DNA from: a virus
Lineage: Duplodnaviria > Caudoviricetes
Virus record (IMG/VR): IMGVR_UViG_3300050146_000027
Coordinates: 1 to 64,000 of that record
Reading direction: 5' to 3' (one strand)
Length of the DNA stretch: 64,000 nt
Part shown: positions 18,390 through 54,519 of the stretch, piece by piece
Position numbering within the stretch: the first letter of the stretch is position 1
Layout: each line of letters begins with the position of its first letter
Position numbers and translations under genes: made by a program
Notes under the pieces: model-generated
The model's database searches: none
Told to the model about the DNA's origin: nothing
Seen by the model: the letters and a program-made list of their open reading frames with translations, nothing else

Positions 18390-18432
18390 AGCCACTCCTA
18401 TTTATGTCTAAAAGACGGAGAGAGTTGGACTC

Positions 18433-18567
18433 TCAGATGCAGGAACGGGAGATCTCATGGCCCATGCAAGCAGGGTCGAAGAGCTCAGCGTTGGTGATGT
18501 AGAGACCAACCAGACAGAGCGCAATCAGGATGACAGCGACTGTCTTCAGAATGGGATGATTGACCAT
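18433..18567 (-). CDS. small single-TM early protein (44 aa; not in the ORF track)
   Basis: MVNHPILKTVAVILIALCLVGLYITNAELFDPACMGHEISRSCI. Confidence 0.5.
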   Translation of the reverse strand: MVNHPILKTVAVILIALCLVGLYITNAELFDPACMGHEISRSCI

Positions 18568-18647
18568 GATGATTAGACCTATCTTAGGGATGGGATCAAC
18601 CTACCCTGGTGAGGGATAGGTTGAAGGGAGGCTTAGGCCTTGTTTAG

Positions 18648-18968
18648 TTAGGCCTTGAGCAGAGTTGCGAGCTCGTCGTAAGCTTGTTGGTACTGAGTAC
18701 CATGTTGCTCACTTTGCTTGGCGAATGCTTGCATTTGGATGCGTGACTCGGCCAGTTCCTGTGCCTTCTCCTGATGGAGAGTCTTCTCGAAGATGGCGTT
18801 GTCCAGCTTGGAGCGGACTTCTTGGCGAAGAGCAGCGTCAGTGACGAACTTGTTTGCCATGCCAACAGCGGAGTTGATGGCGGTGAGTGCACCAGTAGCA
18901 GTATTGGCAGTTGTTTGCACAGCAGCCAGGATGGAGCCAACGGTCATGCGTGAGTTAGCGACGGACAT
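18648..18968 (-). CDS. N4 gp1-like early protein
   Basis: ANSRMTVGSILAAVQTTANTATG..NSAVGMANKFV resembles the recalled N4 gp1. Confidence 0.7.
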   Translation of the reverse strand: MSVANSRMTVGSILAAVQTTANTATGALTAINSAVGMANKFVTDAALRQEVRSKLDNAIFEKTLHQEKAQELAESRIQMQAFAKQSEQHGTQYQQAYDELATLLKA

Positions 18969-18969
18969 G

Positions 18970-19630
18970 TGATGTACCTCAAGATAAGTAGGAAGGATGG
19001 ATCGATGATGATCCCTACAAGAGGCGCAGCCTCAATGATGTGGGGTAGGCGTGTGGTCGGTGTGGATACCCTATACCCGCACACACATATGACCCAAATC
19101 ACTATGTCCCCTCATATTTATTCTGAGGATCTACTCACTACCGAGATATCTTAGAGGGAGATCGGCCCCTTTCTTTCTTGGTTCATGCCAAGGGCTTCTC
19201 ACCACAAAAATATATTGTGGGAAGCTATAGGGGCGAAGCGATCCACATGAGGAGGTAGCACCAAGGCACGTCTGAGCGCAGCGAGGACGTGGCCTGCAGT
19301 GCGGACGAGGATGGGGGATTGCTGAGCGCATGAATGCTACCCACCAATGAAAGAAGGGAGACCTTCACAGATCTCCCTTCAGTGTCGCAGCAGGATTGAG
19401 GAGCCTCCCCTGCGACTGTAGCTGTTACCCACCTGCTACTGGGGCATGGCGCAACTCGTCGTACAACCAAGAAGCAGCTCCAGTGTAGCGGAGCCCTTTG
19501 CCGTAGGCAATGGGCAATAGGGGACACCATCTCTTGTCTTCATTTTGTTGAAGGAGATTTCTACAGGGTGTGATAGAGTTTAGGCTTACCTTCGTCGAAA
19601 GACAACCCTCAATCTTTGTTGGAGAGACCA
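18970..19630. other. non-coding divergence point; probable collapsed terminal repeat / genome end
   Basis: Early genes leave to the left and the terminase operon to the right, as across the N4 ends; many inverted repeats. Confidence 0.6.
19013..19033 (-). promoter_or_regulatory. vRNAP hairpin promoter upstream of gp1
   Basis: Template strand CCCTACAA-GAGGC-GCA-GCCTC, 53 bp from the gp1 start. Confidence 0.7.
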
Positions 19631-20410
19631 ATGAACAGCGCACATGACCTGACCGAAGTCGAGATCAAGAACCTGATTGCCCGTGGCACTGCCCCGAAGA
19701 TCGAAGAGCATGAGATCGAAGCTCTGATTGTCAAGGAAGAGTTTCACCAGTTTGCAGGCACGACCCTCATCACCTGCGTGTTGACTTTGAAGAACGGCTA
19801 CACCGTGAGCGGTGAGTCGGCCTGTGCAGATCCCACCAACTTCAAGGAAGACACTGGCCGTGCTCTGGCCCGCAAGCAAGCCAAGGGCAAGATCTGGTCG
19901 CTGGAAGGCTATGTGCTGAAGAACAAGCTGGCCTTGATCGAAGCAGCAACCAAGCCCACCAAGCCAGATGCAGATGTCAAGACCTACGTCGGTACGAAGG
20001 TGGTTCATGCTTGCCCGATGACTCGACTGGCCTACAACAAGCTCCGTGGTTGGGAGTTGCCTGCAAATGAAAATGGCGATGACGCCGGCTATCTGGTGGA
20101 GTACGCCGACGGTGGTGCACCCAACCTGCCCTCGTTCCGTGGCTACGTCAGTTGGTCCCCCAAGGATGTCTTTGAGAAAGCCTACACCACTGGGGTAACT
20201 TTGAAGAAGACCACCTATGTGGAGCGCATGCTTGAAGAGGTCGCTCAGCTGGGTGAAAAGATCAGGCTGCTGGACAAGTTCATCGAAGGCAGCATCTTTC
20301 CGACCATTGACATTCAGGATGGACAAGATCTGGTGCTTCAGTTGCAGGTCATGAGCGAGTACCACAGCATCCTGAGCCGTCGCTTGCAGCGGGCACAGAA
20401 ACAAAGCTGA
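19631..20410 (+). CDS. three-domain protein: gp49/gp66-family domain + YxGTK..GY.V.Y..SWSP domain + helical crAss001_48-like domain
   Basis: TLITCVLTLKNGYTVSGESACADPTNF..G..LAR..A..KIW.LEGY; YVGTKVVHACPMT..GYLVEY..GYVSWSPKDVFEKAY; YVERMLEE..QL.EK...L.KF...QLQVMSEY..IL. Confidence 0.75.
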   Translation: MNSAHDLTEVEIKNLIARGTAPKIEEHEIEALIVKEEFHQFAGTTLITCVLTLKNGYTVSGESACADPTNFKEDTGRALARKQAKGKIWSLEGYVLKNKLALIEAATKPTKPDADVKTYVGTKVVHACPMTRLAYNKLRGWELPANENGDDAGYLVEYADGGAPNLPSFRGYVSWSPKDVFEKAYTTGVTLKKTTYVERMLEEVAQLGEKIRLLDKFIEGSIFPTIDIQDGQDLVLQLQVMSEYHSILSRRLQRAQKQS

Positions 20411-20427
20411 AGCTGATCATTGGGGCA

Positions 20428-20461
20428 TCGCGCCGCAGGCGCGAGCTACTCCAAGAGTAGC
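20428..20461. promoter_or_regulatory. two abutting 7-bp triloop hairpins
   Basis: TCGCGCC-GCA-GGCGCGA directly followed by GCTACTC-CAA-GAGTAGC. Confidence 0.5.
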
Positions 20462-20493
20462 GAGCCCCTCTTACGACATAAGTAGGAAGAACC

Positions 20494-20733
20494 ATGCCCG
20501 ATTACCTGGACCCCTTTGGGAACTACGACCACATCAAGTCACTGCCGATGGCAGAGGCCGTTGCCCGAGCCAAGGAGATGCAACAGCAGATCCTTGCCTT
20601 ACATGAAGAAGTCTCCAAGGAGATCCGCATGCATGTGTCGACTGTGAAGAGCCGCGAGACGATCCGTGCCAAGATTGCTGTACTCCAAGAAGAGATGAAG
20701 TTCCTTCTTGTTCGTAGTGCACTAGCAACCTAA
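20494..20733 (+). CDS. hypothetical coiled-coil protein
   Basis: RBS AGGAAG; heptad pattern. Confidence 0.6.
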   Translation: MPDYLDPFGNYDHIKSLPMAEAVARAKEMQQQILALHEEVSKEIRMHVSTVKSRETIRAKIAVLQEEMKFLLVRSALAT

Positions 20734-20747
20734 GTAGGAAGAAGATC

Positions 20748-21422
20748 ATGACATTGACCGTAGCTGACGTTGCTAAGGCCCTGCCCCCCAATCTCAAGGG
20801 GGCAGCCACTCCTGAGTTCGTTGACCAGATCAACAACATCGTGACTGACCCGGAGGTGGCCCAGCATGTGCGGGACAACTTCATCAGCTACACCAAAGTC
20901 TTGCAGGATGGGAAGTTCAAGACTGAGGACTACCTGCATGCGGTGACTTACGTCAGCTTCAAGCTCATGGGGCTCTCCAATCAGGATGCCTACTTCCGTA
21001 CCTTCCCGGCTCGACATGCTCGACTGGTAGCGGCCGGCACTTCATCGAAAGACATTGCCGCCTACGTCTCGGGCTACAACCGAGGCAAGTTGGTGAACCT
21101 GATCCTGGAGCAAAGCTTGGTGCCCACCTGGGTTCTGAACCAAGACATCTACCAGAAGGCCATCAACGTGCAGGCTGACTTGATGGCCAATGCCATGAGT
21201 GAGCTGGTTCGCACGCAGGCAGCCAACTCGCTGCTGACTCACCTGGCCAAGCCCAAGGAAGCCGGCCCGCTGGTAAACATCGACATGCGTGAGAGCTCTG
21301 GCATGAACGAACTCAAGGACACCCTCACCAAATTGGCACTGCAGCAGCAAGCTCTGATCCAAGCCGGTGTGTCTACCAAATCGATCGCTGAACAGAACAT
21401 CATTGATGTGGAGGCCAAGTAA
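20748..21422 (+). CDS. N4 gp69-like protein (putative terminase small subunit)
   Basis: DNFISYTKVL..GKFK..DYL.AV.YVS.KLMG..N..AY..TFP.R; immediately upstream of the large terminase. Confidence 0.75.
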   Translation: MTLTVADVAKALPPNLKGAATPEFVDQINNIVTDPEVAQHVRDNFISYTKVLQDGKFKTEDYLHAVTYVSFKLMGLSNQDAYFRTFPARHARLVAAGTSSKDIAAYVSGYNRGKLVNLILEQSLVPTWVLNQDIYQKAINVQADLMANAMSELVRTQAANSLLTHLAKPKEAGPLVNIDMRESSGMNELKDTLTKLALQQQALIQAGVSTKSIAEQNIIDVEAK

Positions 21423-23014
21423 TGACCGCTCTCATCAAACAAGACTTGGATCTGTGGTTGGATCAAGTCAACTACGCAGACATCAACAGCTCGTTGTATC
21501 TGCCGTCTGAGTTTGCACTGACGTTCATGAACTTCATCAAGTTGGTGAACGGGAGCCAAGGAGAAAGCAACAAGACTCCTGCAGTTCACTTGAAGATGCT
21601 GGACAAGGTTGTGGGTCCAAGCGACTACATTGCCAACCTCTGCTTTCGTGGTGCAGCAAAGACCACGCTCTTCATGGAATACTTCAGTCTGTTCCTTGGA
21701 GTATTCCACTGTCTGCCAGGATTCGGTGCTATTGATGGGATGATCTACGTCTCAGACTCTATGGACAACGGCGTCAAGTCAGCACGGAAGAACATTGAGT
21801 TCCGCTACAACAACAGTGAGTTCTTGCAGCAGTGGATTCCGGAAGCGAAGTTTACTGACGCCTACATCGAGTTCAAGAACCGATCGGGCGAGATGCTGGG
21901 CATCAAGATGTTCGGTGCCAAGACCGGTCTGCGGGGTACGAAAATCTTTGGCAAGCGCCCTGTCATTGCCATCCTTGATGACTTGGTGAGTGATGATGAC
22001 GCCAACTCCAAAGCGGCCATGAGCACCATCAAGGACACGGTCTACAAGGGCGTGAACCATGCACTGGATCCAACCCGTCGCAAGGTGATTTTCAACGGCA
22101 CTCCGTTCAACAAGGATGACATCCTGATCGAAGCGGTTGAATCTGGTGGCTGGGATGTGAACGTCTGGCCAGTCTGCGAAAGGTTTCCATGCAGCCGAGA
22201 AGAGTTTGTCGGTGCTTGGCCAGATCGATTCAGCTACGACTACATCCAAAGTCAGTACGAGCTGGCTGAGAAAACCGGGAAGCTGTCTGGTTTCTACCAA
22301 GAGCTCATGCTTCGCATCTCGTCTGAGGATGAGCGCCTTGTGCAAGATGCAGAAATTCGCTGGTACAAGCGGGCGCAGATCCTCAGCAACAAGGGGATGT
22401 ACAACTTCTACATCACGACTGACTTTGCCACAAGCAAAAAACAGACCGCCGATTACAACGTGATCAGCGTTTGGGCCTACAATGCCAATGGCGATTGGTT
22501 CTGGGTAGATGGTATCTATGTTCGTCAGACCATGGATCACACGATCAACGATCTGTTCCGGCTGGTGCAAGCGTACCGACCACAGCAAGTAGGCGTCGAG
22601 ATCACAGGCCAGCAGGGTGCTTTCATTCAGTGGCTTCAGCAAGAAATGCTGAGTCGGAATATCTGGTTCAACTTTGCCAGCTCCGAGAAAAGCAATGAGC
22701 CCGGCATTCGTCCTTCTGTTGACAAGCTGCAGCGATTCAACCTTGTTGTCCCTTGGTTCAAGACCGGCAAGATGTACTTCCCTGAAGAGATGCGGCAAAG
22801 TACCATCATGGGTGCGTTCATGCAGCAGATTCGTTTGACCACGATGTCTGGCATCAAAGGCAAGGATGACTGCCTGGATACCATCTCGATGCTCGGATAC
22901 TTGAAACCCTGGAAGCCGGCCGACGCTGTACCATTGAGTCAGCGTGACGATGGCGTCTGGGAACCAGATGAAGAAGAGGCATCGCCGTCTGCTTTGTCTT
23001 CCTACCTTGTGTGA
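21422..23014 (+). CDS. terL: terminase large subunit (N4 gp68-like)
   Basis: CFRGAAKTT Walker A, IAILDDLVSD Walker B, nuclease TTDFATS and DDCLDTISML. Confidence 0.93.
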   Translation: MTALIKQDLDLWLDQVNYADINSSLYLPSEFALTFMNFIKLVNGSQGESNKTPAVHLKMLDKVVGPSDYIANLCFRGAAKTTLFMEYFSLFLGVFHCLPGFGAIDGMIYVSDSMDNGVKSARKNIEFRYNNSEFLQQWIPEAKFTDAYIEFKNRSGEMLGIKMFGAKTGLRGTKIFGKRPVIAILDDLVSDDDANSKAAMSTIKDTVYKGVNHALDPTRRKVIFNGTPFNKDDILIEAVESGGWDVNVWPVCERFPCSREEFVGAWPDRFSYDYIQSQYELAEKTGKLSGFYQELMLRISSEDERLVQDAEIRWYKRAQILSNKGMYNFYITTDFATSKKQTADYNVISVWAYNANGDWFWVDGIYVRQTMDHTINDLFRLVQAYRPQQVGVEITGQQGAFIQWLQQEMLSRNIWFNFASSEKSNEPGIRPSVDKLQRFNLVVPWFKTGKMYFPEEMRQSTIMGAFMQQIRLTTMSGIKGKDDCLDTISMLGYLKPWKPADAVPLSQRDDGVWEPDEEEASPSALSSYLV

Positions 23015-40673: not shown

Positions 40674-40803
40674 TTGAGTGATTTTGGCACTGACTACATC
40701 AGTCCGGAAGGCAAAAAGGTTTTTCAAAGTCGTGTTGCTGAGGCTAAAAGTGGAGGTAAACAACTGACTGAAGTTGAAATCCTTCGCGCAAAGCAGGCAG
40801 GGT

Positions 40804-40812
40804 TGCTATGAT
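40804..40812 (+). promoter_or_regulatory. possible extended -10 promoter for the vRNAP gene
   Basis: TG-C-TATGAT about 25 bp before ATG 40837. Confidence 0.35.
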
Positions 40813-40836
40813 TATGGGAACTCTCAGGAACCAAAC

Positions 40837-43800
40837 ATGGCTGACGTCAACTCCCTTCTGAATCATGCTCTCAGCATGATGTCTGCTCCCACAGCAGTCG
40901 ATACCAAAAAGCAGTCTGTTGCTGCAGCAGTCGATGAAAAGAAAAGTGCCCTGGGCAAGACCCCGGACTTTTACCAAATCGCTGCTGCAGGCAGTACCGA
41001 TGCTGGTCTGGCTTCTGCTGGTGAGTTGGAGAAGGACGTGCGGACCATGAACCAGAGTCAGCTCTGGCAGAAGTACGGTGACAAAGCTCCCCAACTGTTC
41101 CGCCAAATGGCTGATGGTCAGCAAAAGTTTTCTGCTGACATGACGATCGATCGTAATGCTGGTGAGCTCTTTAGCGACTCTACCTCAGGTGCTGCTTCTA
41201 GTTTTGTTGGTGGCTTGGGTAGCATTGCTGCTTTAGGTACTGGTCTGGTCAATGCAGACGCCGGTGCTGCTTTGTCCGGTGCTGTGGCCAAAATGGGTGA
41301 GGTTGTTCAGGGCGTTCAGTCGGAAGGTGTTGGCGCTGCACGTCGAGTTCAACAAGCTCGCTCAGCCAACACCAGTCGCGATAACGAACAACAGTACAAC
41401 CAAGACGTTGCCGATGGCAGCTCTGAGTTGGTTGCTGGCTTGAAGCAGTTTGGTCGTGATTTTGTTGACACAGCAGGCAACTCCACAGACGCGGCTTTTT
41501 TTGCCCAAGGCACCGCCGAAGCAGCCGGCTCCCTTTTGTCTGGCTCTCCTGTGGCTGCAGGTCTTCGCAAGATTGGCACAGCACTTATGGGCGGAGCTGC
41601 CAAACAACGTGCTGTTGCTTTGGCTGCCCAAATTGACCGCACCACTGGTGTTGCATCGACTGCTCGTGTCGCTGATCGTGCTCGCAAAATTGGCTCGGGT
41701 GCGGCTTGGCCTCTGGCAACTGCAGCACTTGAAGGTGGTGGTGCCTACACAGGCACGGTCAATGAAATCATGGGCATGACTCATGATCAGCTGCAAGAAG
41801 GCTCTCCTCAGTATCGTCAAATGTTGGCTGACATGGTAGCCAGTGGCGTTCCTGTTGCTGACGCACGAGAACAAGTCAAAGTCACTTTGGCGAACCAAGC
41901 AGGGGAACAGGCTGCTGCCATCCAGGCCCCTATTGCAGGCGTCACTGGTTTGCTGACTCGTGCTTTGGAAAAACCCTTCACTGCACCATCTGTGCGTGCT
42001 GCCGCTCGTGCTACGTTTGTCAACGAACCTGTTGAAGAGGCTGTTCAGTCATCGACTGGTCAGCTGGCTCAAAACATTGGTGTCCAAGCCAATGCCAATG
42101 AGAACCAAAATCTGGCCAAGGGTGTTGGCGAACAAGGTGCCATGGGTGCTATGTTTGGCATGACTTCTGCAGGTAGTGTTCAAGGTCCTGCTGTTGCCGG
42201 TTTGGGTGCACGCAATGTGTATCGTGGAGCCAAAGCTGCCGTGTCTGCTGCTGTGGAAGCAGGCAAGCCTTTGTACCAAGCACTCATTGAACGTGGTGAC
42301 CGCATTCTGCGTCAGCAAGAACAAGCTTCTCCTGTCAGCGATGAAGCCATCACCGCAGCAACCAACAATCTCAACGCAGTCGCTGAAAACTCGACTGCTG
42401 TGATGACGGAAGCCTTGAACACAGCCAAGATCGATGAAGCAGTCAAGCAGTCCGGCAACCAGTACGTTTCCTCTTTGGTTCAGTCTCTGCAGTTTGACCC
42501 AGCTGAGTTGGAAGGTGCCCCTGACTATGTGCGTCAAGCTGTGGGTGATACCACCTCTCGTGCTGAAGCCGCCATCAAGCTGGCCGACTTGGTGAACAAG
42601 TCTCAAACTGATCAAGATGCTTTGAACAACGCAGCAATGCTGTGGATGCTCATGGAACCTGTGAAGGCCATGAAAGAAGCTGACCCAGAGGCGTTTGCTT
42701 CACTACCCAAGGACAGCCCTGCTCTGTCGCTTGTGCAGCAGTATTCCCAAGTCGCGAACAGCATTGAAGCCAATGCTACTGTTCGACGTGCACTTCGTGC
42801 TGTTGAGCCTTTGCTGACTCGTGCGGCCGCTACGATTCAACCGGTGACTGAAGAATCTCTGGCCACTCCAGAAGGTCAACAGAACGTGCAGAACGCCATT
42901 GCTGTGGCATCGCTGCACCCAGACAAAGGCAACCTGGACGCCAACGAACAGATCTTGACCCATGCTGCCCAGGGCAAGCTGAATCTCACACCCGACCAGC
43001 TGAACACGCTGAAGACTTCTGTCACGTTGCTCCGAGCTCGTGCCAAGATGGAGGAACAGATTGCTGCTTCTGGCACCCGTCGGGTCAAAGATGTGGTGTC
43101 CAGTCAGATCGTGGCCGGCAATGATCCTCTTCGCAAGGTGGCCAAGTCTGCTTTGCAGCACACGCAGGAAATCCTGTCTGCCATGCGAGGCCAGAACTCT
43201 GAATTGGCCACAGCTCGTCTTGAGGATTTTGGCAAGTTTGTTCAGCACATGCAGAACAAAGTCATGGCCCTCAACACTCACTTTGCAAACGGCAATCCGA
43301 ATGCAGATGGCGTGCCATACCAACAACTCCAGCCCACAGGCAATCGTGATTTCAGGCTGTCGCGTGATGGCATGTTTGTCAACACAAACAAAGGCAGCTC
43401 GATCGATTTGGCCCAGTCTGCTGCCATCGAAGCACAAATCTTGGCAGACGTATACAACGGTCTGGTGGGCACCTTTCCTGAACTCAATCAAGCCACCATT
43501 GCAGCAGTGCCATTGGATGCTGCGTTGATCGGCGATTCTGAGACTCTGGCTCAAGGCTTTCGTGATGCACGCAAGCCAGCCAAAGCACAGCCTGTGGAGA
43601 CTGACAATGCAAACCGAAATGTCGATGGTGAGCCAAGTGCCGTGGTACCTGCACGAGATGTACGGGTGGCAGCTGGGGATGAAACAGTCGTTGCAACTCC
43701 TGCTCCAACAGAAGTTGTTGACCAAGGACGAAGCGAAGCAGTTCCACCAGTTGTGGAAACAAAACAAGACAGCACCCCCACACCTGTGGTCGAAGTGCGA

Positions 43801-46800
43801 GATCCTGTACCTGACGCAGTTGATGCCAGCGAACCGCCTGCCAGTGTGATCACCACTCCTCTGGATGATTTGTACGGTGACAACAACTTTGCTCGGTCCA
43901 GCTTCGTCTACCCAGATGAGGCCACAACCCGCCTCAGTGCTGAAGAGTCTCCAATCGCTGCAGTGCGTCGTGCACTGTCGAGCGAGACCCGCTTGAGTTC
44001 TTTCCTCTTTGGTTCGACCAAGCGAAATACTTTGAAGCCTGAAACTGCTTCTGCTTATCAACGGCTGCTCACAGACACCCTGGCACCAGTGGTCATGGCT
44101 GTGCAGCAGCAGTTGGCTGACTTCTTGAACAGCAGTTATTCCAAGAGCGTTCCACAAACGATGCAGGAAATTTTCCTGAACAACATCGAAGTTCCTCGCA
44201 AATCTGGCAAGCCATTGATGGGTTCAGAAATGAACCGACTGGCTCGCGCCAAGGTGCTGAACTTCACTCAGTTGGACAGCAATGGCAACTTGATCTACCA
44301 ACCCCAGATGTTGGAACAAGCATCGTTGGCTGCCATGCAGTGGCTGCTGTCGTCTGATTCTTTCTCCAGTGTGATGGATGAGTCTGACGTGGCCCAGATG
44401 ACTGGCCTGTCTGAAACAGCACTGCAACGAAACCCTGAACTGATTGAGCAACTGACTGAAGGCATGAGCGTTGCTCAGGCCAAAGGCTCACTCTCGATCA
44501 AGATTCGAAAGTACATGGGGCTGCAGTCGAAGAGCACCGCTGACATGGCCTACTCCAACGGTATCATCAATGCGATGGCTGCCGAGCTTCTGCGTGCCAT
44601 GGCTTCTGCTGGGTTGCTGGAGATCAACAACACCAAGCTGACCCCTGCTGTGCACGGAGTCAAGAAAGACAAGACGTTCACTCGCATCGTTGTCAAAAAG
44701 CTGGATGACAAAGAAGCTCTGGCTTCTTTTCAGGACGCCATTGAAGTGGCTTCACTGGTTGCTCCCGAAGTCACCAATTACATCGGTGACGTGACTCCTG
44801 ATGTCGCTGAGCGTCAGATGAACAACAACGAAGTGGCGAATACCACGAACCAAAAGGATGCATTGAGCAAGGAACAACAAACTCCTTTCTACGTGAATCC
44901 TGCCATGGTCAGTTTCTACACATCGCTGGGCAAAGACAATTTGCTGGCCTTGTTTGGAACTTCGTTGGATGACGAAGAGGTGTTCAACGATGCTCACTTG
45001 AAATCAGTGAAAAGCAAGAACAACTCTGTGACTTCGGCTTTTGATCATCTGCTTAGTGTCTTAGCTGATGTCAGCAACGTGGCTGAAACTGCAGGGACTG
45101 CTTTGGATCAAACCCCGATCCGTTACGCCTACAACATGAGCCGAGTGGGTCGCATGCAAATGCTTGGCAAGTACGGTCCACAAGCCAGCAAGCTGGTTCG
45201 TGAGGCCATCCTGCCTACTCGATCCACTCTGAATCTGTCCAACCAGAACAGTGGGTCATTTACTGCCTATGGTCTGGGCTTGGCCCAAGCCCTTGGCATC
45301 AAGGTGCACAACCAGCCGGCTGACGTGTCCGTAACTGAGGTCATGGCCAAGCTGAATGGTGGTCTGGCTCCTGCTGTTGAAATGGTTCGTGAATGGTTGT
45401 CGGCAGTCGATTTGAATCGCCCTGCCGAAATGACTGCCGAGCTCACGACAGACCAAGTCATGCAGCTCAAGGATGCCTTTGCTGCTGCCAAAGCAGATCT
45501 CTCGATGGTTGGTCTGCATGCTCTTGTTGATTACGCTCGCTACTTGGCCAGTGAAGATCAATCAGCATTCCAGACTTCAATGTACTTGGAAGCAGACGGC
45601 GTCACCAACGGTCCCATCAATGCCATGGCCCTGATGAGCATCGGTGGTTTTACGCCGGCATGGGTTAACAATGTTTCCAAGGGTGGTTTGGCATTTGGCC
45701 AGCCCACTACGATGGCCGACATTCGCAAAAGCGACTCCAAGGATCTGTATCAGGCATCGACTGATGCAACTCGTGCACGCCTCTCTGAACTCCGGGATTC
45801 CCTGAGCCAAGAAGGTACTGAGCAAATGGATCATCTGCTCAATCTGATGTCGCTGTTCAGCCCAGATGTGATTTTCAATCCAGATGCCAAATGGGAAGAT
45901 GGCTCTTTGGAGCTGAAGCGTGGAATCGCCAAGAACCCTCTGACCATTACCATCTACGGCTCAGGCCAGTCTGGTATTGCAGGCAAGCTGACTGGTGCTT
46001 TGGTCGATGAGATCTACGCACGCATGAGCACGCTCCTGCAGGCACGCAAAGCCAATCCAGACATCTCGGTGGCCGATGCCATGTTCCCTGGTGATCTTGA
46101 TGCTGCCAACAAGCTGGATCGTTTCAGCAAGTCGATTCATGCTCTGACCACTCTGGTGCCTGTTCGTGAGAAAGGCAATCTGCTTTTTGATGCAGTCAGC
46201 CAACCTGCCCGCAAGTTTGTGCCCAAGACGTTCAGCTTCACAGCCAGTGAACTGGAAACCATGGAAGCCAACATGCTGGAGCTGTTCGTGAAGCCGATGC
46301 GTCAAGGCATTGCTGACACTGTCGGTGAGCCATTGATGCAGGCAGTTGCTACCCTCCGTGATGCTGCTCAAGTGCAATCGATCTTCTTGGAAGCGATGTA
46401 CGTCCAACGCATTGATGAGGCCATGAACAAAAAAGAAGCCACCGATCCGATTTGGCGTCGTGGTGACTTCTTGAGTCAAGCTGAACTGAAAAAGATCACT
46501 GCCGACCTGCGTAACATTTCTCCTTTGGTTCAGACAGGGGATCAAACTTTCCTGATTACCAGCAAACAGACACTTGACCTCGAAGGTCGTGATCTGGAAT
46601 TTGGTCGTGCACTGGATGACAGTCTTCGTCCTGACGCAGACATGTTTGGTCCTGGCCAAGCTGGTGTGCGTGCAATCCCAATGATGACCATTGGTATGGG
46701 CGACGGCATGATGATGCAACTGCTGGCCCAGATGGGCTTGCAAGGCACGCTCAAGATCTTTGATGGCATGAACATGCCTTTGGACAAGATCGGTCAGTAC

Positions 46801-49800
46801 AGCGAACAAGCCAATGCTGCTGTTTACGAATCGTGGAAGGGCAACCCACACGCTGAGATGCTGAAGACTTTTGAGACGTTCTTGGACAATGTCTCTGAAG
46901 CAACAATCACACCGGCCATGCTGCCTACTCTGACTCAGACTTTGTTCTCGTCGTCAGAGCGTCGTTCCATGGCAAAGACTGGTGAAGTGCCCAGCAATGC
47001 AATGATCATGGAACGGATCAAGCAACTGCAAGGCAACTTGGAATGGTCTGCCAAGAGCATTGATGCTCGTCACGCTGCCATTGAATCTTTGCCTGTGTCG
47101 GTTGACCAGATGGCTGCTGCCGGCCGCCCATATACGAACGGCCGTACAACTACCGCACGCATGACCACTGATGATGCTGTGGCTGCTTTGAACAAGGCCT
47201 ATGAAGCTGCCATGGATGGCGGTGCTGTTCCAGCGACCGCACCCATCGCTTCCGTGCCTGCTGTACCAAAGGCTGTCGCATCCCCCATTGACTTGGTGGG
47301 TCGTGTTGCTGCATCTGGGGTTCGTGTTCTGTCGCCTACTGCCATTGAGAGCCTTTCCCGTGACGGCATGACTGAGGCACAAAAAGCTGTCTACAGCGAG
47401 ATCCGTCGATCCAATGCAGTGCAGGGCTACAAGGTGGTAGCTGGTACGGCTGAGCAACTTGATGCATTCATCGCTGAGACTGGCCGCTCACAGCGTCCAG
47501 CCCAAGAGGTGCATGGCTGGATCAACGTTGGTGACAAGACCATCTACATGATCAACCCGTCGGTTGAGACTCTGGTCCACGAGCTTGTGCATGCAGGTTC
47601 CTATGAGACGGTTCTGGCTCACTATCGTGGCGAGAGTGTCAGCACTGAAGTGGCTGCTGCTGTCGGTCGCCTGGAAACTTTGATGGCTGAGTTTGTTGAA
47701 ACTGATGTCAGTCAGTTTGATCCAGCACTGCGTGCTGCTTACGACTCAGCCAAGGCTGCAATCCTTTCGGCCAACTTGGAATCGGATCAGTCTGTGGCCA
47801 TGGCCAAAGCACTGAATGAATTCATGGCCTGGGGCTTGACCAACGAACAGCTGACCAAGGACCTGAAGAGTAAGCCTGCTCCTGTTCTGGTCCGTTTGGC
47901 CAAGGGCATCGTTGCTGCGATCAAGTCTCTGATCTGTGGCCGCAAGATTGCACCCAAGCCTGCCGACGATTTCCTCAGCAACCTGCAATTCAACTCTGGT
48001 GTGATCTTCCGCAGCCAACCCAACATTGCTGCTGTGGTTCGCAGCGGTGAGCTCTATCACTCGACTGCCTATGGCAACTCCAACCGCATCAACACCATCC
48101 GTCAGACGTTTGCTCAGAAGATCGTTGACCTTCTGGCCACTGAGAAGTGGCAACGTGGTACGAAGATGCGTCAGGTGGAAGTCTCTCAAGCTGTGCAAGA
48201 AGCTGTCTTGGTGGGTCTGTCCTTTAATGCCCACGGCTTTCCGATGAACCAACAAGAAGGAACTACCTTCCGCATGATGCTGGCTGCCCTGGCTACTGAA
48301 GCCGACATTGACGCAAACTCGATGGATCGTGCACAAGAGCTCTACGCCCACGTCTCCAAGAACTTGACGGTTGAAGACTTCATGGCTGATCCATCTTCAT
48401 TGGATCCCCAGATGCGTTACGACGCACAAGAGAAGTACAGCGTGATCATGGGCCAGTACCTCACGGTGAAAGATGCCAAGGGTCGCAGCTCACTGCTCCC
48501 ATCATTCCTGGCTCTGGCTACTGTGAACGATGAGTTCCGTGCTGTTTTGGCCAAGATGGCTTTGCCCAAAACTGTCAAGAACATGGATGGCACTTTGGAT
48601 TCGATCTTGAGCAATGCTGGCGACTCGGTGATGGACTCTTTGAGCCGTCGCTTGGCCGGCGATGTCAAAGGCAAGTCGGTTCGTGACTCCATCGACAACC
48701 TGCTGGAGCACATTCGCAAGGAAGCCCAAAACGAACAAACGTTCCTTGACCAGTACGCTTCAGTCTCTGGTGGCATCGTTGACCGTGCCAATGAAATTGT
48801 GACCAATGGTCTGAAAGCTGCTTCTGACGCATTGCTTGCTCGTGCTGATGCTGCTGAGAAGAATGCATCGAATGCTTTGGTCAAGAGTGGTGCCCGCTTT
48901 GCCAAGCTGGTGGCTTTGGTGGCAAGCGAGAAGAACGGTGCCATCATCTCTGAAGGTCTGCTGGCATCCACCAACGCCACAAAGATGTGGGAGCCCCTGC
49001 GTACTTTCATCAGCGACATGGTTGGTCGGACTGAGTCCAATGCCAACGTGTACGACATGATCAAAGCAGTTCGCTCAGCAGTGCAGCAAACTCGTCAGCA
49101 GTTCCGTGATGGGGTGCCTCAGATCATCAACAGCAAATTCAAGAAGAAGGTGACTCCTGCTCAATGGACCGCAATGTTCAGCACCCTGGCCAAGACTGAC
49201 CTGGCTGTGCTTCGCGGTTCAATGCAGCATGCTGAGATCGCAGCTTTGATCTCTGACCAAGCTGCTCGTGACACTGAGATCAACAAACTGGAAGCTCAGA
49301 TTCAAGCTTCGAATCCTCGCCACTGGGCAATCTTGTCGGCCAAGATGAAGCAACTGGCTGTGTTCATGAACACTGGTGTCCCTGGTGTGAACCTGCTTCG
49401 CAATGCAGAAGCCATCGGTCGCCTGCTTGGTGAGCAGAAGGCCAACAACTACAGCCTGCCCAATGCAACCACCAAAACTGCCATCGACAAGCTGGTGAGC
49501 CTGTACGCTTTGGAAGCACTGCCTGACGCTACCCGAGACACAGTTTCCTCTTTGGTTCAAAGCGAAGCAGATGGTGTCAGCTTTGTAGTTGACTACTTGG
49601 TTGGTCAACGCAAAGAGGAAGTTCGCAAGGCCACCGGCACTGCAATGCTGAATGCTTACAAGGGCTACATCCCTTCTGAACAAGAAGGCGGTGTGTCCAT
49701 GCAAATTGCCAGTGACTCGGAGTTTGCCAACCTTCGTGAGCTTGGCTACGTTCGCGTTGCTCCTTACAAGGGCAGCTCTGTCGAACTTGGTCAAGAGCTC

Positions 49801-51417
49801 AAGAGCTACTACTACGCTCCTTTGTCGGGACGTGCCATCTTCAACCAAGGCATCATGCAGAACGTCCGACACACTGCAGGCGGTGTTGATGCAACGTCTG
49901 GTTTCACTGTCGGCATGACTGCTGGTCGAGTGACCGGCAAGCAGCAGATTGCTCGCATCCTCAGCCGCATGGGCCAAGAAAAGAGCACGGTTGAAACCTT
50001 CATGCCTGTGTATGACTCTGTTGGTGAGGTCATTGCTCTGGAGCGTTCAGTTGATCCTAAGATCGCTGCCAAGCTCAACAACAGCAAGGACCTTGCTCGC
50101 ATGATTGGTGTCTGGCGTGGTCGTCAAGTTGAAGAAGCCACCAGCCAAATCTACAACGAGCAGTTGATCGACAAGCTCAAGGCTATGTACGACGAAGACA
50201 TGAAAGTGTCTTCTTCAAACAAGGCACAGTATGTGAACCTTCTGGACAACAAGACGGCCAAGGGGAACCCAGTCATTGCTGATGCTGTCTCGCTGTTTAC
50301 CAATGAGACTCTTGACTACATCCGAAGCAAGTTTGGTCAAGATTTCTGGGTTCGTCGTGACATGGTGCGTGATGCTGTTGGCGAACGCTCTGCTTCGATT
50401 GGGGATCTGTGGAGTGGTGTCTCGAACATGTCAAAAGACAATCGTGACCATCTTCGCAAAGCTCTCGTTGGTGCGCTTGGTATCGACGCATACCGCAAAG
50501 TGGTTGGTGCAGAACGTTTGCTGCAGAACTTCATGGCTGACATGCGGACACTGATTGTGGTGAAGTCGGTGATTGTTCCGGCTGCCAACTTCGTGTCGAA
50601 CATCTATCAGCTGATCAGCCGTGGTGTGCCCATGCTCTACATTGCGAAGACCATGCCTGCCAAGCTGACTGAGATCGATTCGTATGCCAAGACCCAGCTG
50701 CGTCAGATTGAAGCTGAAGCTGAGCTTCGGGCTGCCACTGGCAATGCCGTTGCTGAGCGTAAATTGAAGGCTGAGATTCAATCGATCAAAGATGCCCACA
50801 AGCGTATGAGCATCTGGCCTCTGATCGAAGCTGGCGAGTTCAGTTCAATTGCTGACGTGGGCATGCAGGCTGAAGACTTGGATCTGACTTCAGGCAAGCT
50901 GGCCTCTTACGTTGAACGCCAAGTGGACAAGCTGCCTGACAGCATCAAAACTGCTGGCCGCTATGCTTTGATCACCAAGGACACTGCTCTGTATCGTGGC
51001 TTGCAGAAGTCGGTGCAGTACGGTGACTTTGTGGCCAAGGCAGTGCTCTTTGATGATCTGACCAAACGTCAGAAGAAGACCAAGGCAGAAGCCCTGGCCC
51101 GTATCACTGAAGAGTTTGTGAACTACGATCGGTTGCCCGGCCGGTTCCGCAGCTACCTGGAGAACTCCGGTCTGCTGTGGTTCTACAACTTCAAGATCCG
51201 TTCGACCAAGGTGGCTCTGAGCACGATCCGGAACAACCCAGTGCATGCTTTGATGTCGATGACACTGCCTGCTCCGGATTTCTTGGGCAGCATCGGCTCA
51301 CCCATAAGTGACAACATCCTGGCCAAGTCTCTCAGTGATTCTCTTGGTTCCTCGATCGGCACTGACATGGCTTTCCGAGCACCAACGCTGAACCCCTGGA
51401 TGAACATGATCCACTGA
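40837..51417 (+). CDS. virion-encapsidated RNA polymerase (N4 gp50-like), 3526 aa
   Basis: YAYNMSRVGRMQMLG, LEADGVTNGP (motif A), RGIAKNPLTITIYGSG (motif B), KIFDG (motif C); RBS AGGA. Confidence 0.97.
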   Translation: MADVNSLLNHALSMMSAPTAVDTKKQSVAAAVDEKKSALGKTPDFYQIAAAGSTDAGLASAGELEKDVRTMNQSQLWQKYGDKAPQLFRQMADGQQKFSADMTIDRNAGELFSDSTSGAASSFVGGLGSIAALGTGLVNADAGAALSGAVAKMGEVVQGVQSEGVGAARRVQQARSANTSRDNEQQYNQDVADGSSELVAGLKQFGRDFVDTAGNSTDAAFFAQGTAEAAGSLLSGSPVAAGLRKIGTALMGGAAKQRAVALAAQIDRTTGVASTARVADRARKIGSGAAWPLATAALEGGGAYTGTVNEIMGMTHDQLQEGSPQYRQMLADMVASGVPVADAREQVKVTLANQAGEQAAAIQAPIAGVTGLLTRALEKPFTAPSVRAAARATFVNEPVEEAVQSSTGQLAQNIGVQANANENQNLAKGVGEQGAMGAMFGMTSAGSVQGPAVAGLGARNVYRGAKAAVSAAVEAGKPLYQALIERGDRILRQQEQASPVSDEAITAATNNLNAVAENSTAVMTEALNTAKIDEAVKQSGNQYVSSLVQSLQFDPAELEGAPDYVRQAVGDTTSRAEAAIKLADLVNKSQTDQDALNNAAMLWMLMEPVKAMKEADPEAFASLPKDSPALSLVQQYSQVANSIEANATVRRALRAVEPLLTRAAATIQPVTEESLATPEGQQNVQNAIAVASLHPDKGNLDANEQILTHAAQGKLNLTPDQLNTLKTSVTLLRARAKMEEQIAASGTRRVKDVVSSQIVAGNDPLRKVAKSALQHTQEILSAMRGQNSELATARLEDFGKFVQHMQNKVMALNTHFANGNPNADGVPYQQLQPTGNRDFRLSRDGMFVNTNKGSSIDLAQSAAIEAQILADVYNGLVGTFPELNQATIAAVPLDAALIGDSETLAQGFRDARKPAKAQPVETDNANRNVDGEPSAVVPARDVRVAAGDETVVATPAPTEVVDQGRSEAVPPVVETKQDSTPTPVVEVRDPVPDAVDASEPPASVITTPLDDLYGDNNFARSSFVYPDEATTRLSAEESPIAAVRRALSSETRLSSFLFGSTKRNTLKPETASAYQRLLTDTLAPVVMAVQQQLADFLNSSYSKSVPQTMQEIFLNNIEVPRKSGKPLMGSEMNRLARAKVLNFTQLDSNGNLIYQPQMLEQASLAAMQWLLSSDSFSSVMDESDVAQMTGLSETALQRNPELIEQLTEGMSVAQAKGSLSIKIRKYMGLQSKSTADMAYSNGIINAMAAELLRAMASAGLLEINNTKLTPAVHGVKKDKTFTRIVVKKLDDKEALASFQDAIEVASLVAPEVTNYIGDVTPDVAERQMNNNEVANTTNQKDALSKEQQTPFYVNPAMVSFYTSLGKDNLLALFGTSLDDEEVFNDAHLKSVKSKNNSVTSAFDHLLSVLADVSNVAETAGTALDQTPIRYAYNMSRVGRMQMLGKYGPQASKLVREAILPTRSTLNLSNQNSGSFTAYGLGLAQALGIKVHNQPADVSVTEVMAKLNGGLAPAVEMVREWLSAVDLNRPAEMTAELTTDQVMQLKDAFAAAKADLSMVGLHALVDYARYLASEDQSAFQTSMYLEADGVTNGPINAMALMSIGGFTPAWVNNVSKGGLAFGQPTTMADIRKSDSKDLYQASTDATRARLSELRDSLSQEGTEQMDHLLNLMSLFSPDVIFNPDAKWEDGSLELKRGIAKNPLTITIYGSGQSGIAGKLTGALVDEIYARMSTLLQARKANPDISVADAMFPGDLDAANKLDRFSKSIHALTTLVPVREKGNLLFDAVSQPARKFVPKTFSFTASELETMEANMLELFVKPMRQGIADTVGEPLMQAVATLRDAAQVQSIFLEAMYVQRIDEAMNKKEATDPIWRRGDFLSQAELKKITADLRNISPLVQTGDQTFLITSKQTLDLEGRDLEFGRALDDSLRPDADMFGPGQAGVRAIPMMTIGMGDGMMMQLLAQMGLQGTLKIFDGMNMPLDKIGQYSEQANAAVYESWKGNPHAEMLKTFETFLDNVSEATITPAMLPTLTQTLFSSSERRSMAKTGEVPSNAMIMERIKQLQGNLEWSAKSIDARHAAIESLPVSVDQMAAAGRPYTNGRTTTARMTTDDAVAALNKAYEAAMDGGAVPATAPIASVPAVPKAVASPIDLVGRVAASGVRVLSPTAIESLSRDGMTEAQKAVYSEIRRSNAVQGYKVVAGTAEQLDAFIAETGRSQRPAQEVHGWINVGDKTIYMINPSVETLVHELVHAGSYETVLAHYRGESVSTEVAAAVGRLETLMAEFVETDVSQFDPALRAAYDSAKAAILSANLESDQSVAMAKALNEFMAWGLTNEQLTKDLKSKPAPVLVRLAKGIVAAIKSLICGRKIAPKPADDFLSNLQFNSGVIFRSQPNIAAVVRSGELYHSTAYGNSNRINTIRQTFAQKIVDLLATEKWQRGTKMRQVEVSQAVQEAVLVGLSFNAHGFPMNQQEGTTFRMMLAALATEADIDANSMDRAQELYAHVSKNLTVEDFMADPSSLDPQMRYDAQEKYSVIMGQYLTVKDAKGRSSLLPSFLALATVNDEFRAVLAKMALPKTVKNMDGTLDSILSNAGDSVMDSLSRRLAGDVKGKSVRDSIDNLLEHIRKEAQNEQTFLDQYASVSGGIVDRANEIVTNGLKAASDALLARADAAEKNASNALVKSGARFAKLVALVASEKNGAIISEGLLASTNATKMWEPLRTFISDMVGRTESNANVYDMIKAVRSAVQQTRQQFRDGVPQIINSKFKKKVTPAQWTAMFSTLAKTDLAVLRGSMQHAEIAALISDQAARDTEINKLEAQIQASNPRHWAILSAKMKQLAVFMNTGVPGVNLLRNAEAIGRLLGEQKANNYSLPNATTKTAIDKLVSLYALEALPDATRDTVSSLVQSEADGVSFVVDYLVGQRKEEVRKATGTAMLNAYKGYIPSEQEGGVSMQIASDSEFANLRELGYVRVAPYKGSSVELGQELKSYYYAPLSGRAIFNQGIMQNVRHTAGGVDATSGFTVGMTAGRVTGKQQIARILSRMGQEKSTVETFMPVYDSVGEVIALERSVDPKIAAKLNNSKDLARMIGVWRGRQVEEATSQIYNEQLIDKLKAMYDEDMKVSSSNKAQYVNLLDNKTAKGNPVIADAVSLFTNETLDYIRSKFGQDFWVRRDMVRDAVGERSASIGDLWSGVSNMSKDNRDHLRKALVGALGIDAYRKVVGAERLLQNFMADMRTLIVVKSVIVPAANFVSNIYQLISRGVPMLYIAKTMPAKLTEIDSYAKTQLRQIEAEAELRAATGNAVAERKLKAEIQSIKDAHKRMSIWPLIEAGEFSSIADVGMQAEDLDLTSGKLASYVERQVDKLPDSIKTAGRYALITKDTALYRGLQKSVQYGDFVAKAVLFDDLTKRQKKTKAEALARITEEFVNYDRLPGRFRSYLENSGLLWFYNFKIRSTKVALSTIRNNPVHALMSMTLPAPDFLGSIGSPISDNILAKSLSDSLGSSIGTDMAFRAPTLNPWMNMIH

Positions 51418-51882: not shown

Positions 51883-52335
51883 TCAGCTGTTCTTGGGACG
51901 CTGCAGGCCACCGAACAGGCTCTTGGGCGTGGTGGCCGGAGCTGCTTCGACTTGGGAAGTCGCTTCGGTCTGCTCAGCTTCGCCAGTGACCTGACCAGCC
52001 TCAGCTTCTTGGACCACCGAGCCAGTTTCCTGGGCCGTGGCTGCGTTTTCTTGAGCAGCCGAGGCCTGGGTAGCCGGATCAGGCTGCACTTCGCTGACGG
52101 CCTTCACAGCGGCCACCGCGACAGGCTTGATGTTGGTCGAGCGGGTGACTTGGGCCACAGCCGTGGGGGCAACCTGGCCGGGCTCGATCAGATCGATCGT
52201 GGCAGTGATGCCATTGGCACCACGAGTGGCGGCCAGATCGATGCTGAAGGTGGTGCCTTCGGCCAGGGTCAGGCGAGAGGCGACGTAGTCACGCAGGGCT
52301 TGTTCGACTTCAGTTTGGACGAGGGTGATTTGCAT
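51883..52335 (-). CDS. conserved N4-like hypothetical protein
   Basis: MQI.L.Q.E.EQAL..Y........G....ID..ATRG..G.TA.ID; ends with SLFGGL. Confidence 0.7.
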   Translation of the reverse strand: MQITLVQTEVEQALRDYVASRLTLAEGTTFSIDLAATRGANGITATIDLIEPGQVAPTAVAQVTRSTNIKPVAVAAVKAVSEVQPDPATQASAAQENAATAQETGSVVQEAEAGQVTGEAEQTEATSQVEAAPATTPKSLFGGLQRPKNS

Positions 52336-52344
52336 GGAAACTCC

Positions 52345-52905
52345 TTAGACTGTATTCAGCAGTCGGATCAGGTTTTGAAATTGCTGGGTGTTGACCCCAG
52401 CGTGGATTGCCCCGATGGCATCGGCCATGTGTTCAGCACTGGAAGCGTTGATCACACCGCCATGCAGAGGCCAATTGGCTGTCGGGTAGTCAGCCACAGC
52501 GGCTGAGATCATCTGATCCTTTGTCGCTGTTTTTGAGTTAGTCATGGCTTTTTTGACTTCACTCGCAGTGACCTCAATGAGCGGGATGTTCTGAGCACGC
52601 AAGGCACCAAGTAGACCAACACAAATGCCATAGGCTTTCATGCCAGCAGCACTTTGTGAGCCCACAGGGGCTTCCACAAAGATGACTTTGGAGGACAGAA
52701 CCAAAGGAAGAATGTTGCTGAACAGCTTGTTGGCACGTTCAATGTCATAGCTGTTCACGCGAACTTGCTTCCCCTTTGGTTCATCTCCAGTCTTGATGAC
52801 AGACAACACAGGCACATCAAGTACCCCTGTTGCCAGGTCAAGACTGGAGAAGGCCAGTCCCCAGTTGCGCATGCTCGGATCCATCCCTAGAACAGGGACC
52901 CTCAC
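52345..52905 (-). CDS. RuvC-like Holliday junction resolvase (N4 gp46-like)
   Basis: LGMDPSMRNWGLA, IFVEAPVGSQSA, EHMADAI. Confidence 0.85.
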   Translation of the reverse strand: MRVPVLGMDPSMRNWGLAFSSLDLATGVLDVPVLSVIKTGDEPKGKQVRVNSYDIERANKLFSNILPLVLSSKVIFVEAPVGSQSAAGMKAYGICVGLLGALRAQNIPLIEVTASEVKKAMTNSKTATKDQMISAAVADYPTANWPLHGGVINASSAEHMADAIGAIHAGVNTQQFQNLIRLLNTV

Positions 52906-52908
52906 AGG

Positions 52909-53661
52909 TCAGCTCTTGGGGCCGAACAGGCTCTTACGAGCTGTTGCAGCAACTTCGCCGGCCTTGGGTGGGGCTGTGCGAGCACCACCAGCAGCACCGT
53001 CCTTGATCGTGCGCTTGTCACGAGTCTGACCCTTGTTGCGTTCGAGCCAAGAATCCCAGAACTTCGCTTCGGTCTGGCCTTGGCGAGCTTCGGCCACAGT
53101 CAGCTTCTGTTCAGGGTGGTAGACCTTGTCGGTCACGTTGATCTCACGGGTTTCGGCCGTGGGCACGTACTCGGCGTCAGCACCGGTGCCGGACTTCTCG
53201 TTCTTGTTTTCCAGCACCTTCAAGATGCCCAACGAGATGGGTTGGCCAATGGCGGCCACCAGCATGTCGACGCCTTTGGGCAGTTCCTTCTTGGCTTCGT
53301 AGTCGTAGAGCTTGATGGTGCGCTCTTCGAAAGCAGACTCGGACAAGGGAACGCCAGTGGCGATCAGGCAGATGTCGTCAGCGATGGTGAAGCCAGGCAG
53401 AGGAACCTTCTTGGTTCTGTCGTCCTTGTTCAGGAAGAAGTTCTCACCCTTCTTGTTCGTGATCCAGAAGGTCTCACGGAACTCGGTGCCGCTGAAGTCA
53501 GCGATCAGGGTCAGAGATGCGGCACCGCCGTCGGATTTGCCGGCGTACAGGGCTTTGATCTTGCCGGTGTAGATGTCAGTTTCGAGGGGGCGAAAACCGC
53601 CCAGACGGTCTTGGGATTCTTCCAGACCTTCGCTTTTCAGATTGCCAAACAGAGCACTCAT
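52909..53661 (-). CDS. single-stranded DNA-binding protein (N4 gp45-like)
   Basis: DRLGG...ETDIY, ETFWIT.KKG, LPGF..ADD, C-terminal RKSLFG. Confidence 0.85.
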   Translation of the reverse strand: MSALFGNLKSEGLEESQDRLGGFRPLETDIYTGKIKALYAGKSDGGAASLTLIADFSGTEFRETFWITNKKGENFFLNKDDRTKKVPLPGFTIADDICLIATGVPLSESAFEERTIKLYDYEAKKELPKGVDMLVAAIGQPISLGILKVLENKNEKSGTGADAEYVPTAETREINVTDKVYHPEQKLTVAEARQGQTEAKFWDSWLERNKGQTRDKRTIKDGAAGGARTAPPKAGEVAATARKSLFGPKS

Positions 53662-53731
53662 GATGCTGCCTTTCGTTGCAGTTGTTGAACAGAGCAGAGA
53701 ATTCTGCTCCCAGTTCTACGGGAACGGTAGC

Positions 53732-54457: not shown

Positions 54458-54519
54458 TTGTATTCCTTTGGTTCCGGAGATTGATAACCAAAGAAAGGGA
54501 TGACGGTGCACCCCCTTCT

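Follow-up and report, generated by a model that had tools for sequence, protein, structure and literature searches.

A three-module protein at the early/late junction of an N4-like phage, a probable multivalent immune-signal sponge with a conserved middle domain outside Pfam

We analysed a gene of an N4-like phage (Duplodnaviria; Caudoviricetes) that lies in a window of 64,000 nucleotides, positions 1 to 64,000 of the IMG/VR record IMGVR_UViG_3300050146_000027. The gene (19631..20410, plus strand, stop codon included) encodes a protein of 259 residues in which an Acb4 module (PF13876), a middle domain here called X, and a Sequestin module (PF21825) follow one another, and homology to characterised proteins makes it probable that the product is a multivalent sponge for immune signals. 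Its new element is the X domain, about 70 residues that are highly conserved, belong to no Pfam family and are found fused to five families of sponge. An earlier note, made from the letters of the window without database searches, had described three separable modules and suggested that one polypeptide may neutralise several nucleotide second messengers.

Domain composition of the 259-residue protein

The coding sequence is an open frame without stops, and a Shine-Dalgarno-like GGAG can be read from the sequence at 19621..19624 on the plus strand, 6 nucleotides before the ATG. The initiator methionine (M1) is conserved among homologues of equal length, which form more than 100 clusters, many of them from N4-like contigs of 72-77 kb. 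An opposite-strand open reading frame (ORF) at 19586-20404 was considered and rejected as a shadow of this gene.

An AlphaFold2 model of the protein was built on 86 homologues (mean pLDDT 89) and consists of three separately folded units with linkers between them: one helix followed by three strands and another, long helix (residues 26-105), a small beta-rich unit (residues 117-184) and a two-helix hairpin (residues 196-258). Pfam placed PF13876 on residues 25-100 (19703..19930, plus strand) and PF21825 on residues 195-254 (20213..20392, plus strand), while the X domain, a small beta-barrel without a named family, occupies residues 117-186 (approximately 116-187; 19979..20188, plus strand). 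The three modules are real. The gp49/gp66-type domain that the earlier note had placed at about residues 20-100 and the two-helix crAss001_48-like unit that it had placed at about residues 195-259 correspond to these two Pfam matches, the second also to the helices of the model, and the motifs that it had read at about residues 117-186 are present in a separately folding domain to which no Pfam family could be assigned even at E ≤ 10 (search of residues 110-192).

The Acb4 and Sequestin modules

The N-terminal module matched PF13876 (Phage_gp49_66) with an E-value of 3.2e-24 and 85.7 bits against a cut-off of 27. That this family is Acb4, a link that the earlier note had also drawn, is established in the literature: PF13876 was assigned 1,331 homologues, its SPO1 member is a tetrameric sponge for 3'3'-cyclic GMP-AMP (3'3'-cGAMP), all eight homologues tested, from varied clades, bound the same ligand, some members carry additional extensions that are unexplained, and the fold descended from double-stranded RNA-binding domains (dsRBDs) (Chang et al., bioRxiv 10.1101/2024.12.30.630793). 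The Acb4 homotetramer has four inter-protomer pockets for cyclic dinucleotides. In our model the module has strands at residues 33-40, 46-53 and 58-64 and a helix at residues 73-105, that is, a dsRBD-like three-strand core with flanking helices, and it superposes on SPO1 Acb4 (9e4w) with a Foldseek probability of 1.0, an E-value of 4e-4, a root-mean-square deviation of 1.6 Å over 68 columns and a target template-modelling (TM) score of 0.67-0.76. The module is 37% identical to the Acb4 domain of gp59 of the Pseudomonas phage vB_PaeP_C2-10_Ab09 (Ab09). When the whole protein was searched against PDB sequences, one weak Acb4 row was returned (E 0.4) and the remaining rows were chance matches.

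The C-terminal module matched PF21825 (crAss001_48) with an E-value of 3.4e-13 and 49.7 bits against a cut-off of 24.8, and with 53.3 bits when this piece was searched alone; its two helices (residues 196-219 and 228-258) are modelled at pLDDT 95-98. PF21825 is Sequestin, a sponge for 3'cADPR (1''-3' glycocyclic ADP-ribose, 1''-3' gcADPR) that cancels type I Thoeris, an activity found in 10 of the 13 members tested; the ligand residues of SequestinA are R8, E12, Q47 (printed as 'O' in the source text and taken here as Q) and R61, of which E12, Q47 and R61 are essential (Tal et al., 10.1101/2025.07.12.664507). Sequestins are antiparallel homodimers of a short two-helix hairpin of about 60-80 residues. 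In the window protein R199, E203, Q237 and R251 follow each other with a spacing of 4/34/14, as against 4/35/14 in SequestinA, and line up with the same residues of Ab09 gp59. Among 86 homologues no variation is seen at E203, Q237 or R251, and R199 is conserved in at least 90%.

Sequence and fold of the X domain

X carries the motif YVGTK..PMTR..YN..RGW.LP..EN..GYLVEY..GG.PN...GYVSWSPKDVFEKAY and matches PHROGs of its own (phrog_872 and phrog_9467). It has no NCBIfam match, its ESM Atlas matches are to unnamed viral clusters only, and its profile returned nothing but chance SH3 rows from PDB sequences (E 0.5-0.8). Modelled alone, X folds with pLDDT 92 as an SH3/Tudor-like small barrel. Foldseek found no match for this model in the PDB at E ≤ 0.001, and the hits in the Foldseek list reached at best Z 3.5 on realignment. 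When X was compared by VIA-align with 48,161 chains, the highest Z was 4.4, to be read as noise, since the tool's own note places values below 5 for small barrels in the noise range; the look-alikes were DUF1653, CarD/Mfd, Tudor, chromo and SH3 barrels. The model thus describes X as a small beta-barrel of a generic kind, for which no relative could be recognised among solved structures.

Several named anti-defence families were compared with X. A diverged Tad2 found no support: PF11195 was not matched by the whole protein at E ≤ 1 or by residues 110-192 at E ≤ 10, the Tad2 chains 8wje_D and 8smf_G scored Foldseek E-values of 1.7-2.8 with a TM-score of 0.30 and fell below Z 2 on realignment, and in proteins that carry both X and Tad2 the PF11195 match spans only the portion after X. 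TadIV-1 was ruled out, since it consists of helices only and is restricted to Straboviridae. Published descriptions give Lockin as an elongated hexamer made largely of beta-sheet; none of the searches returned a Lockin row, which excludes nothing about Lockin. In the literature compared, to which Tad4-Tad8 did not belong, X is not a named anti-defence family.

The only homologue of X that has been studied is part of a solved structure. The X profile aligns to residues 2-70 of gp68, the RyR Tad of the Pectobacterium phage vB_PatP_CB1 (hhalign 95.6%, E 1.1e-8), the C-terminal half of which is a RyR domain (PF02026), and a search of BFVD found the same X-RyR architecture in Yersinia phage TG1 (E 1.2e-4, TM-score 0.70). 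The N-terminal domain of gp68 forms a domain-swapped dimer in the crystal, with strand beta-1 inserted into the partner, and the June 2026 preprint that reports it, which names Tad2, Tad3, Acb4 and Sequestin, calls this domain 'a fold with unknown function' (10.64898/2026.06.04.730250).

Distribution, partners and conservation of the X domain

A HMMER pass over all 1.84 billion representatives placed the X family in 1,563 or more protein clusters: with a threshold of E ≤ 1e-3 there were 1,563 proteins, with one of E ≤ 1e-10 there were 815. Identities are typically 57-75% over about 70 residues, and the family is represented in phages of Proteobacteria, Clostridium and Bacteroidota. X is fused, in free order, to Acb4, Sequestin, Tad2, Acb2/Tad1 and RyR-Tad, and it also occurs as a standalone ORF. 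Pfam partners were counted in 144 of the best X representatives, that is, the best 150 less six already met among the same-length homologues: 41 carry a Tad2-like domain, 41 a Sequestin, 29 an Acb4 and two the Acb2/Tad1 hairpin. Architectures were assigned with local domain hidden Markov models (HMMs) for all of the best 150, the most frequent being X-Tad2 (37/150), followed by X joined to a stretch that we could not name (31/150), Acb4-X-Sequestin and X-Sequestin (19/150 each), X alone (13/150), Acb4-X (7/150) and X-Acb4 (5/150); Sequestin-X, Tad2-X and X-Acb4-Sequestin were also seen. Clustering of the unexplained stretches in X proteins (n = 54) left 47 singletons, and within this sample no further partner family was seen to recur. 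In one metagenomic protein (P0161, 227 residues) overlapping X matches at residues 14-74 and 69-151 stand before Tad2, a possible tandem X-X-Tad2 arrangement.

The earlier note had stated that its middle domain is commonly fused to DUF2829, and this link holds: X lies N-terminal to a Tad2-like (DUF2829) domain in N4 gp49, IME11_19, Vibrio phage 44E38.1 p0031 and phage Huey CDS0064, with BLASTP identities of 54-57% between our X and those of IME11_19 and 44E38.1 p0031. As a gene of its own, X was found in three metagenomic N4-like contigs, where the stop codon of a lone 98-residue X gene overlaps the start of a lone 79-residue Sequestin gene, and a second lone X gene was found in an unrelated context. 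In pairwise comparison, 86 three-module orthologues are on average 66% identical in X, 48% in Acb4 and 36% in Sequestin, and the invariant residues of X are polar or aromatic (K123, R132, R139, E147, Y135, Y158, Y172, W141 and W175).

Two database annotations touch these families. In Escherichia phage Huey (our locus L005) an X-Tad2 gene (1201-1701) and an Acb4 gene (1936-2316) are both labelled 'anti-CRISPR protein', a label that looks wrong, as the domains point to sponge-type anti-CBASS and anti-Thoeris candidates (CBASS, cyclic-oligonucleotide-based antiphage signalling system). In phage N4 (L004, NC_008720, 2106-2959) the 'N4 Gp49' family PF13876 matches the RefSeq product gp48, and gp49 is annotated as DUF2829 only; such a mismatch between the name of a Pfam family and the number of an N4 gene can mislead annotation.

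Proposed mechanism and the role of the X domain

We propose, as the most probable mechanism, that the window protein sequesters more than one class of immune signal. The Acb4 module would assemble as a tetramer and take up CBASS cyclic dinucleotides of the 3'3'-cGAMP and cyclic di-AMP (c-di-AMP) type. The Sequestin hairpins would pair as antiparallel dimers, each holding 1''-3' gcADPR in two interface pockets, and type I Thoeris would thereby be silenced. X would, like the homologous N-terminal domain of gp68, form a strand-swapped dimer and so serve at the least as a conserved two-fold hub that ties protomers together between the sponge modules; two-fold units are compatible with a D2 tetramer. 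The suggestion that one polypeptide answers several signals is accordingly supported by homology to characterised proteins, but the arm for gcADPR is the C-terminal PF21825 module, to which the note had assigned no signal, and not the middle domain through which the earlier note had drawn the connection to Thoeris.

Several observations weigh against this proposal or parts of it. In a weak phmmer alignment to SPO1 Acb4 (E 0.4), made over the contact set K36, F48, E49, V56, Y57, F62, N63, I66, T70 and K81, a number of ligand contacts are changed (K36 to T45, E49 to T58, Y57 to A66, N63 to K72 and T70 to L79) and the aromatic contacts F48 and F62 are retained as Y57 and F71; because several side-chain contacts are not kept, the dinucleotide specificity may differ from that of SPO1 Acb4. 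The Acb4 domain of Ab09 gp59 binds cGAMP weakly (10.64898/2026.06.04.730250). A scan of 18400-20800 for sigma-70 promoters gave 0 sites, and any timing of expression is for that reason a guess from gene order. Finally, a purely structural X fits poorly with its standing as the most conserved of the three modules and with its occurrence as a lone ORF. X is either a dimerising hub or a candidate sponge.

The second option is both an extension of the multivalent-sponge reading and its main rival. It holds that X is an undescribed, widespread family of immune-signal sponges, or an autonomous anti-defence module, that takes a third signal other than 1''-3' gcADPR into pockets at the strand-swapped dimer interface; candidate signals are His-ADP-ribose (His-ADPR), N7-cyclic ADP-ribose (N7-cADPR), cyclic trinucleotides, the Pycsar signals cyclic CMP and cyclic UMP (cCMP/cUMP), and cyclic oligoadenylates. 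We regard it as a serious possibility that falls somewhat short of even chances. Sequestin came to light because no other Pfam family is fused so often to Tad2 (60 cases) or to Acb4 (91 cases) (Tal et al., 10.1101/2025.07.12.664507), and the same fusion logic applies more strongly to X, which accompanies five sponge families, RyR-Tad included, in any domain order. X also exists free-standing, once with a lone gene for Sequestin directly after it in this genomic slot, and it is better conserved than its partners; promiscuous fusion, a gene of its own and this conservation are all difficult to account for in a mere linker. Polar or aromatic invariant residues are what nucleotide pockets have, and a universal small-molecule target would agree with the conservation of X in phages of Proteobacteria, Clostridium and Bacteroidota. 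Against this, residues 1-86 of gp68 alone have no anti-Thoeris-I activity and the RyR half is enough, type I Thoeris being the only system tried, and the ligand pocket in the co-crystal of gp68 with gcADPR is described in the C-terminal domain (10.64898/2026.06.04.730250); nor does the generic small barrel of X have a nucleotide-binding relative.

X might instead bind a conserved protein, either a host protein such as RNA polymerase or a defence protein, and so tether or target the sponge, or inhibit a sensor or effector in the manner of Tad3-Tad8. Among the best structural look-alikes are Tudor-like domains that interact with RNA polymerase, those of CarD, CdnL, Mfd and UvrD/PcrA (Z 3.5-4.3), and protein-binding anti-Thoeris proteins exist, but these Z values are within the noise for small barrels, no sequence similarity to the look-alikes was found and X is conserved over phages of very different hosts. 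We consider this reading unlikely.

Genome context of the sponge gene

The assembly (genome C1) is circular, with 75,132 bp and a 42-bp end overlap (1-42 and 75091-75132, one mismatch); because it is circular, the physical termini are not visible and a terminal repeat is collapsed. The phage is N4-like, as judged from a virion RNA polymerase (vRNAP) of 3,547 residues (40774-51417) and a large terminase (21422-23014), and its closest relatives are N4-like phages of Achromobacter and Pseudomonas. No tRNAs were found in the window.

Upstream of the sponge gene lies a homologue of N4 gp1, the first early gene (18648..18968, minus strand), recognised by tblastn with its PF26891-annotated counterparts in the related loci L011 and L014 (E 9e-25 and 1e-16); a homologue of N4 gp2 is also upstream and, like that of gp1, divergent from the sponge gene. 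A non-coding junction of 662 bp (18969..19630) separates the early genes, which run leftward, from the late block, which runs rightward; it has no ORF and several hairpins, and by synteny it would be the place of N4-type genome termini. Downstream, on the plus strand, a 79-residue ORF (20494-20733), for which the only match was a sub-threshold one to an Mtr4 barrel, is followed by a small-terminase-like gene (224 residues, with a homologue in Pseudomonas phage Arace01 annotated as small terminase) and the large terminase (530 residues, Terminase_6C), together at 20748..23014. At the position of the 79-residue ORF, L009 and L010 have a 71-residue ORF, and L013-L015 and Rhizobium phage RHph_X3_15 have none.

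With gp1 and gp2 homologues diverging directly upstream and terminase genes downstream, the sponge gene opens the rightward block. The earlier note had called it the first gene rightward of the genome end, and synteny agrees, since related phages have the same layout (RHph_X3_15, Arace01 and two metagenomic genomes). Being first in the terminase and structural block, the gene is probably expressed with the late proteins, and co-expression with late genes is plausible on this ground. In a search for terminator-like sites, none lay between the gene and the terminase genes (20410-20800), and 18400-20800 as a whole contains seven, compared with 1.6 expected. Two strong hairpins of the junction, at 19153-19172 (plus strand) and 19353-19380 (minus strand), share an AGGGAGA(T/C)C core, and one has a 12-bp stem. 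For these hairpins a role as terminators, as N4-type hairpin promoters or as end-related repeats is conceivable.

Within a clade of N4-like phages, the slot between gp1/gp2 and the small-terminase-like gene differs in content from phage to phage. It holds Acb4-X-Sequestin in the window (slot at 18969-21422), in L007 (4372-5130), in L008 (2668-3429), and in L013 and L014; Tad2 with Acb4-X in L015 (3066-4319 for L013-L015); and X and Sequestin as two coupled ORFs in L009-L011 (1166-2668). The early/late junction is thus a second sponge locus of variable module content in N4-like phages, apart from the published hotspot between primase and vRNAP. In the present genome that canonical hotspot beside vRNAP (51883-54523, minus strand) encodes a RuvC-like protein that is likely a Bes1 orthologue (52345-52905), ORFs of 149 and 249 residues without a family and a Sak4-like AAA_24 protein; no sponge domain recognised by Pfam was found among the ORFs scanned there.

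The position of the gene directly 5' of the terminase genes on the same strand, and the descent of the Acb4 fold from dsRBDs, would suit an RNA-binding or DNA-packaging accessory that works with terminase and has no part in defence, but such a role is very improbable, as all three modules recur beside other sponges away from terminase (for example at the N4 gp48/gp49 hotspot by vRNAP), accessory anti-defence genes, unlike packaging machinery, typically show the kind of variable content that this locus has, and the ligand residues of Sequestin are conserved.

Significance

A phage that carries a fused sponge can counter several signalling defences by means of a single small gene. The whole protein adds no new principle here, because Acb4-Sequestin fusions have already been published, and its main value lies in X. 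X was out of reach of the fusion screen by which Sequestin was discovered, because the queries of that screen were Pfam families only. Should X bind a signal, it would be a new sponge family present in the model phage N4 (gp49), the 259-residue protein would be a sponge of three specificities, and N4 gp49, RyR-Tad and hundreds of 'DUF2829' proteins would become two-sponge fusions, so that the reading of many 'DUF2829' annotations would change. Should X be only a dimerising hub, it would show how phages build multivalent sponges. The comparison also points to a second, module-variable sponge locus at the early/late junction of N4-like phages.

Comparison with known systems

SPO1 Acb4 (9e4w) shares the alpha-beta-beta-beta-alpha core and PF13876 membership with our N-terminal module and differs in being a single-domain protein of 96 residues, about 26% identical, in which most side-chain ligand contacts are not the same. 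RyR Tad gp68 resembles the window protein in joining an X homologue to a sponge domain for gcADPR; its partner, however, is a helical domain like RyR Repeat12, not Acb4 or Sequestin, and its X is N-terminal and a divergent member of the family (about 30% identical).

In phage N4 itself the corresponding modules are divided between neighbouring genes. N4 gp49 begins with X at residues ~9-77 (56% identity, tblastn E 3e-18), followed by a Tad2-like domain at residues 83-159, and gp48 is an Acb4 (PF13876). Unlike the gene described here, these are two adjacent genes beside vRNAP, and X is paired with Tad2 instead of Sequestin. N4 Acb4 is a trigger of PanDA and binds c-di-AMP, at 111 nM.

Another of the closest known systems is Ab09 gp59, which is likewise from an N4-like phage and contains both Pfam domains in the same order; a further Acb4-Sequestin fusion is known from phage YH6 (Tal et al., 10.1101/2025.07.12.664507). 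Ab09 gp59 is tetrameric, with tight binding of 1''-3' gcADPR and weaker binding of 3'3'-cGAMP and 2'3'-cyclic di-adenylate (2'3'-cAA), and its inhibition is strong for type I Thoeris and partial for type II-A CBASS (10.64898/2026.06.04.730250). Because this two-module fusion has already been characterised, the multi-signal reading of such proteins is not new. What sets the window protein apart is that Ab09 gp59, with 147 residues, is without the X domain of about 72 residues and the linkers, and that it is encoded in the hotspot between primase and vRNAP, whereas the window gene lies at the early/late junction near terminase.

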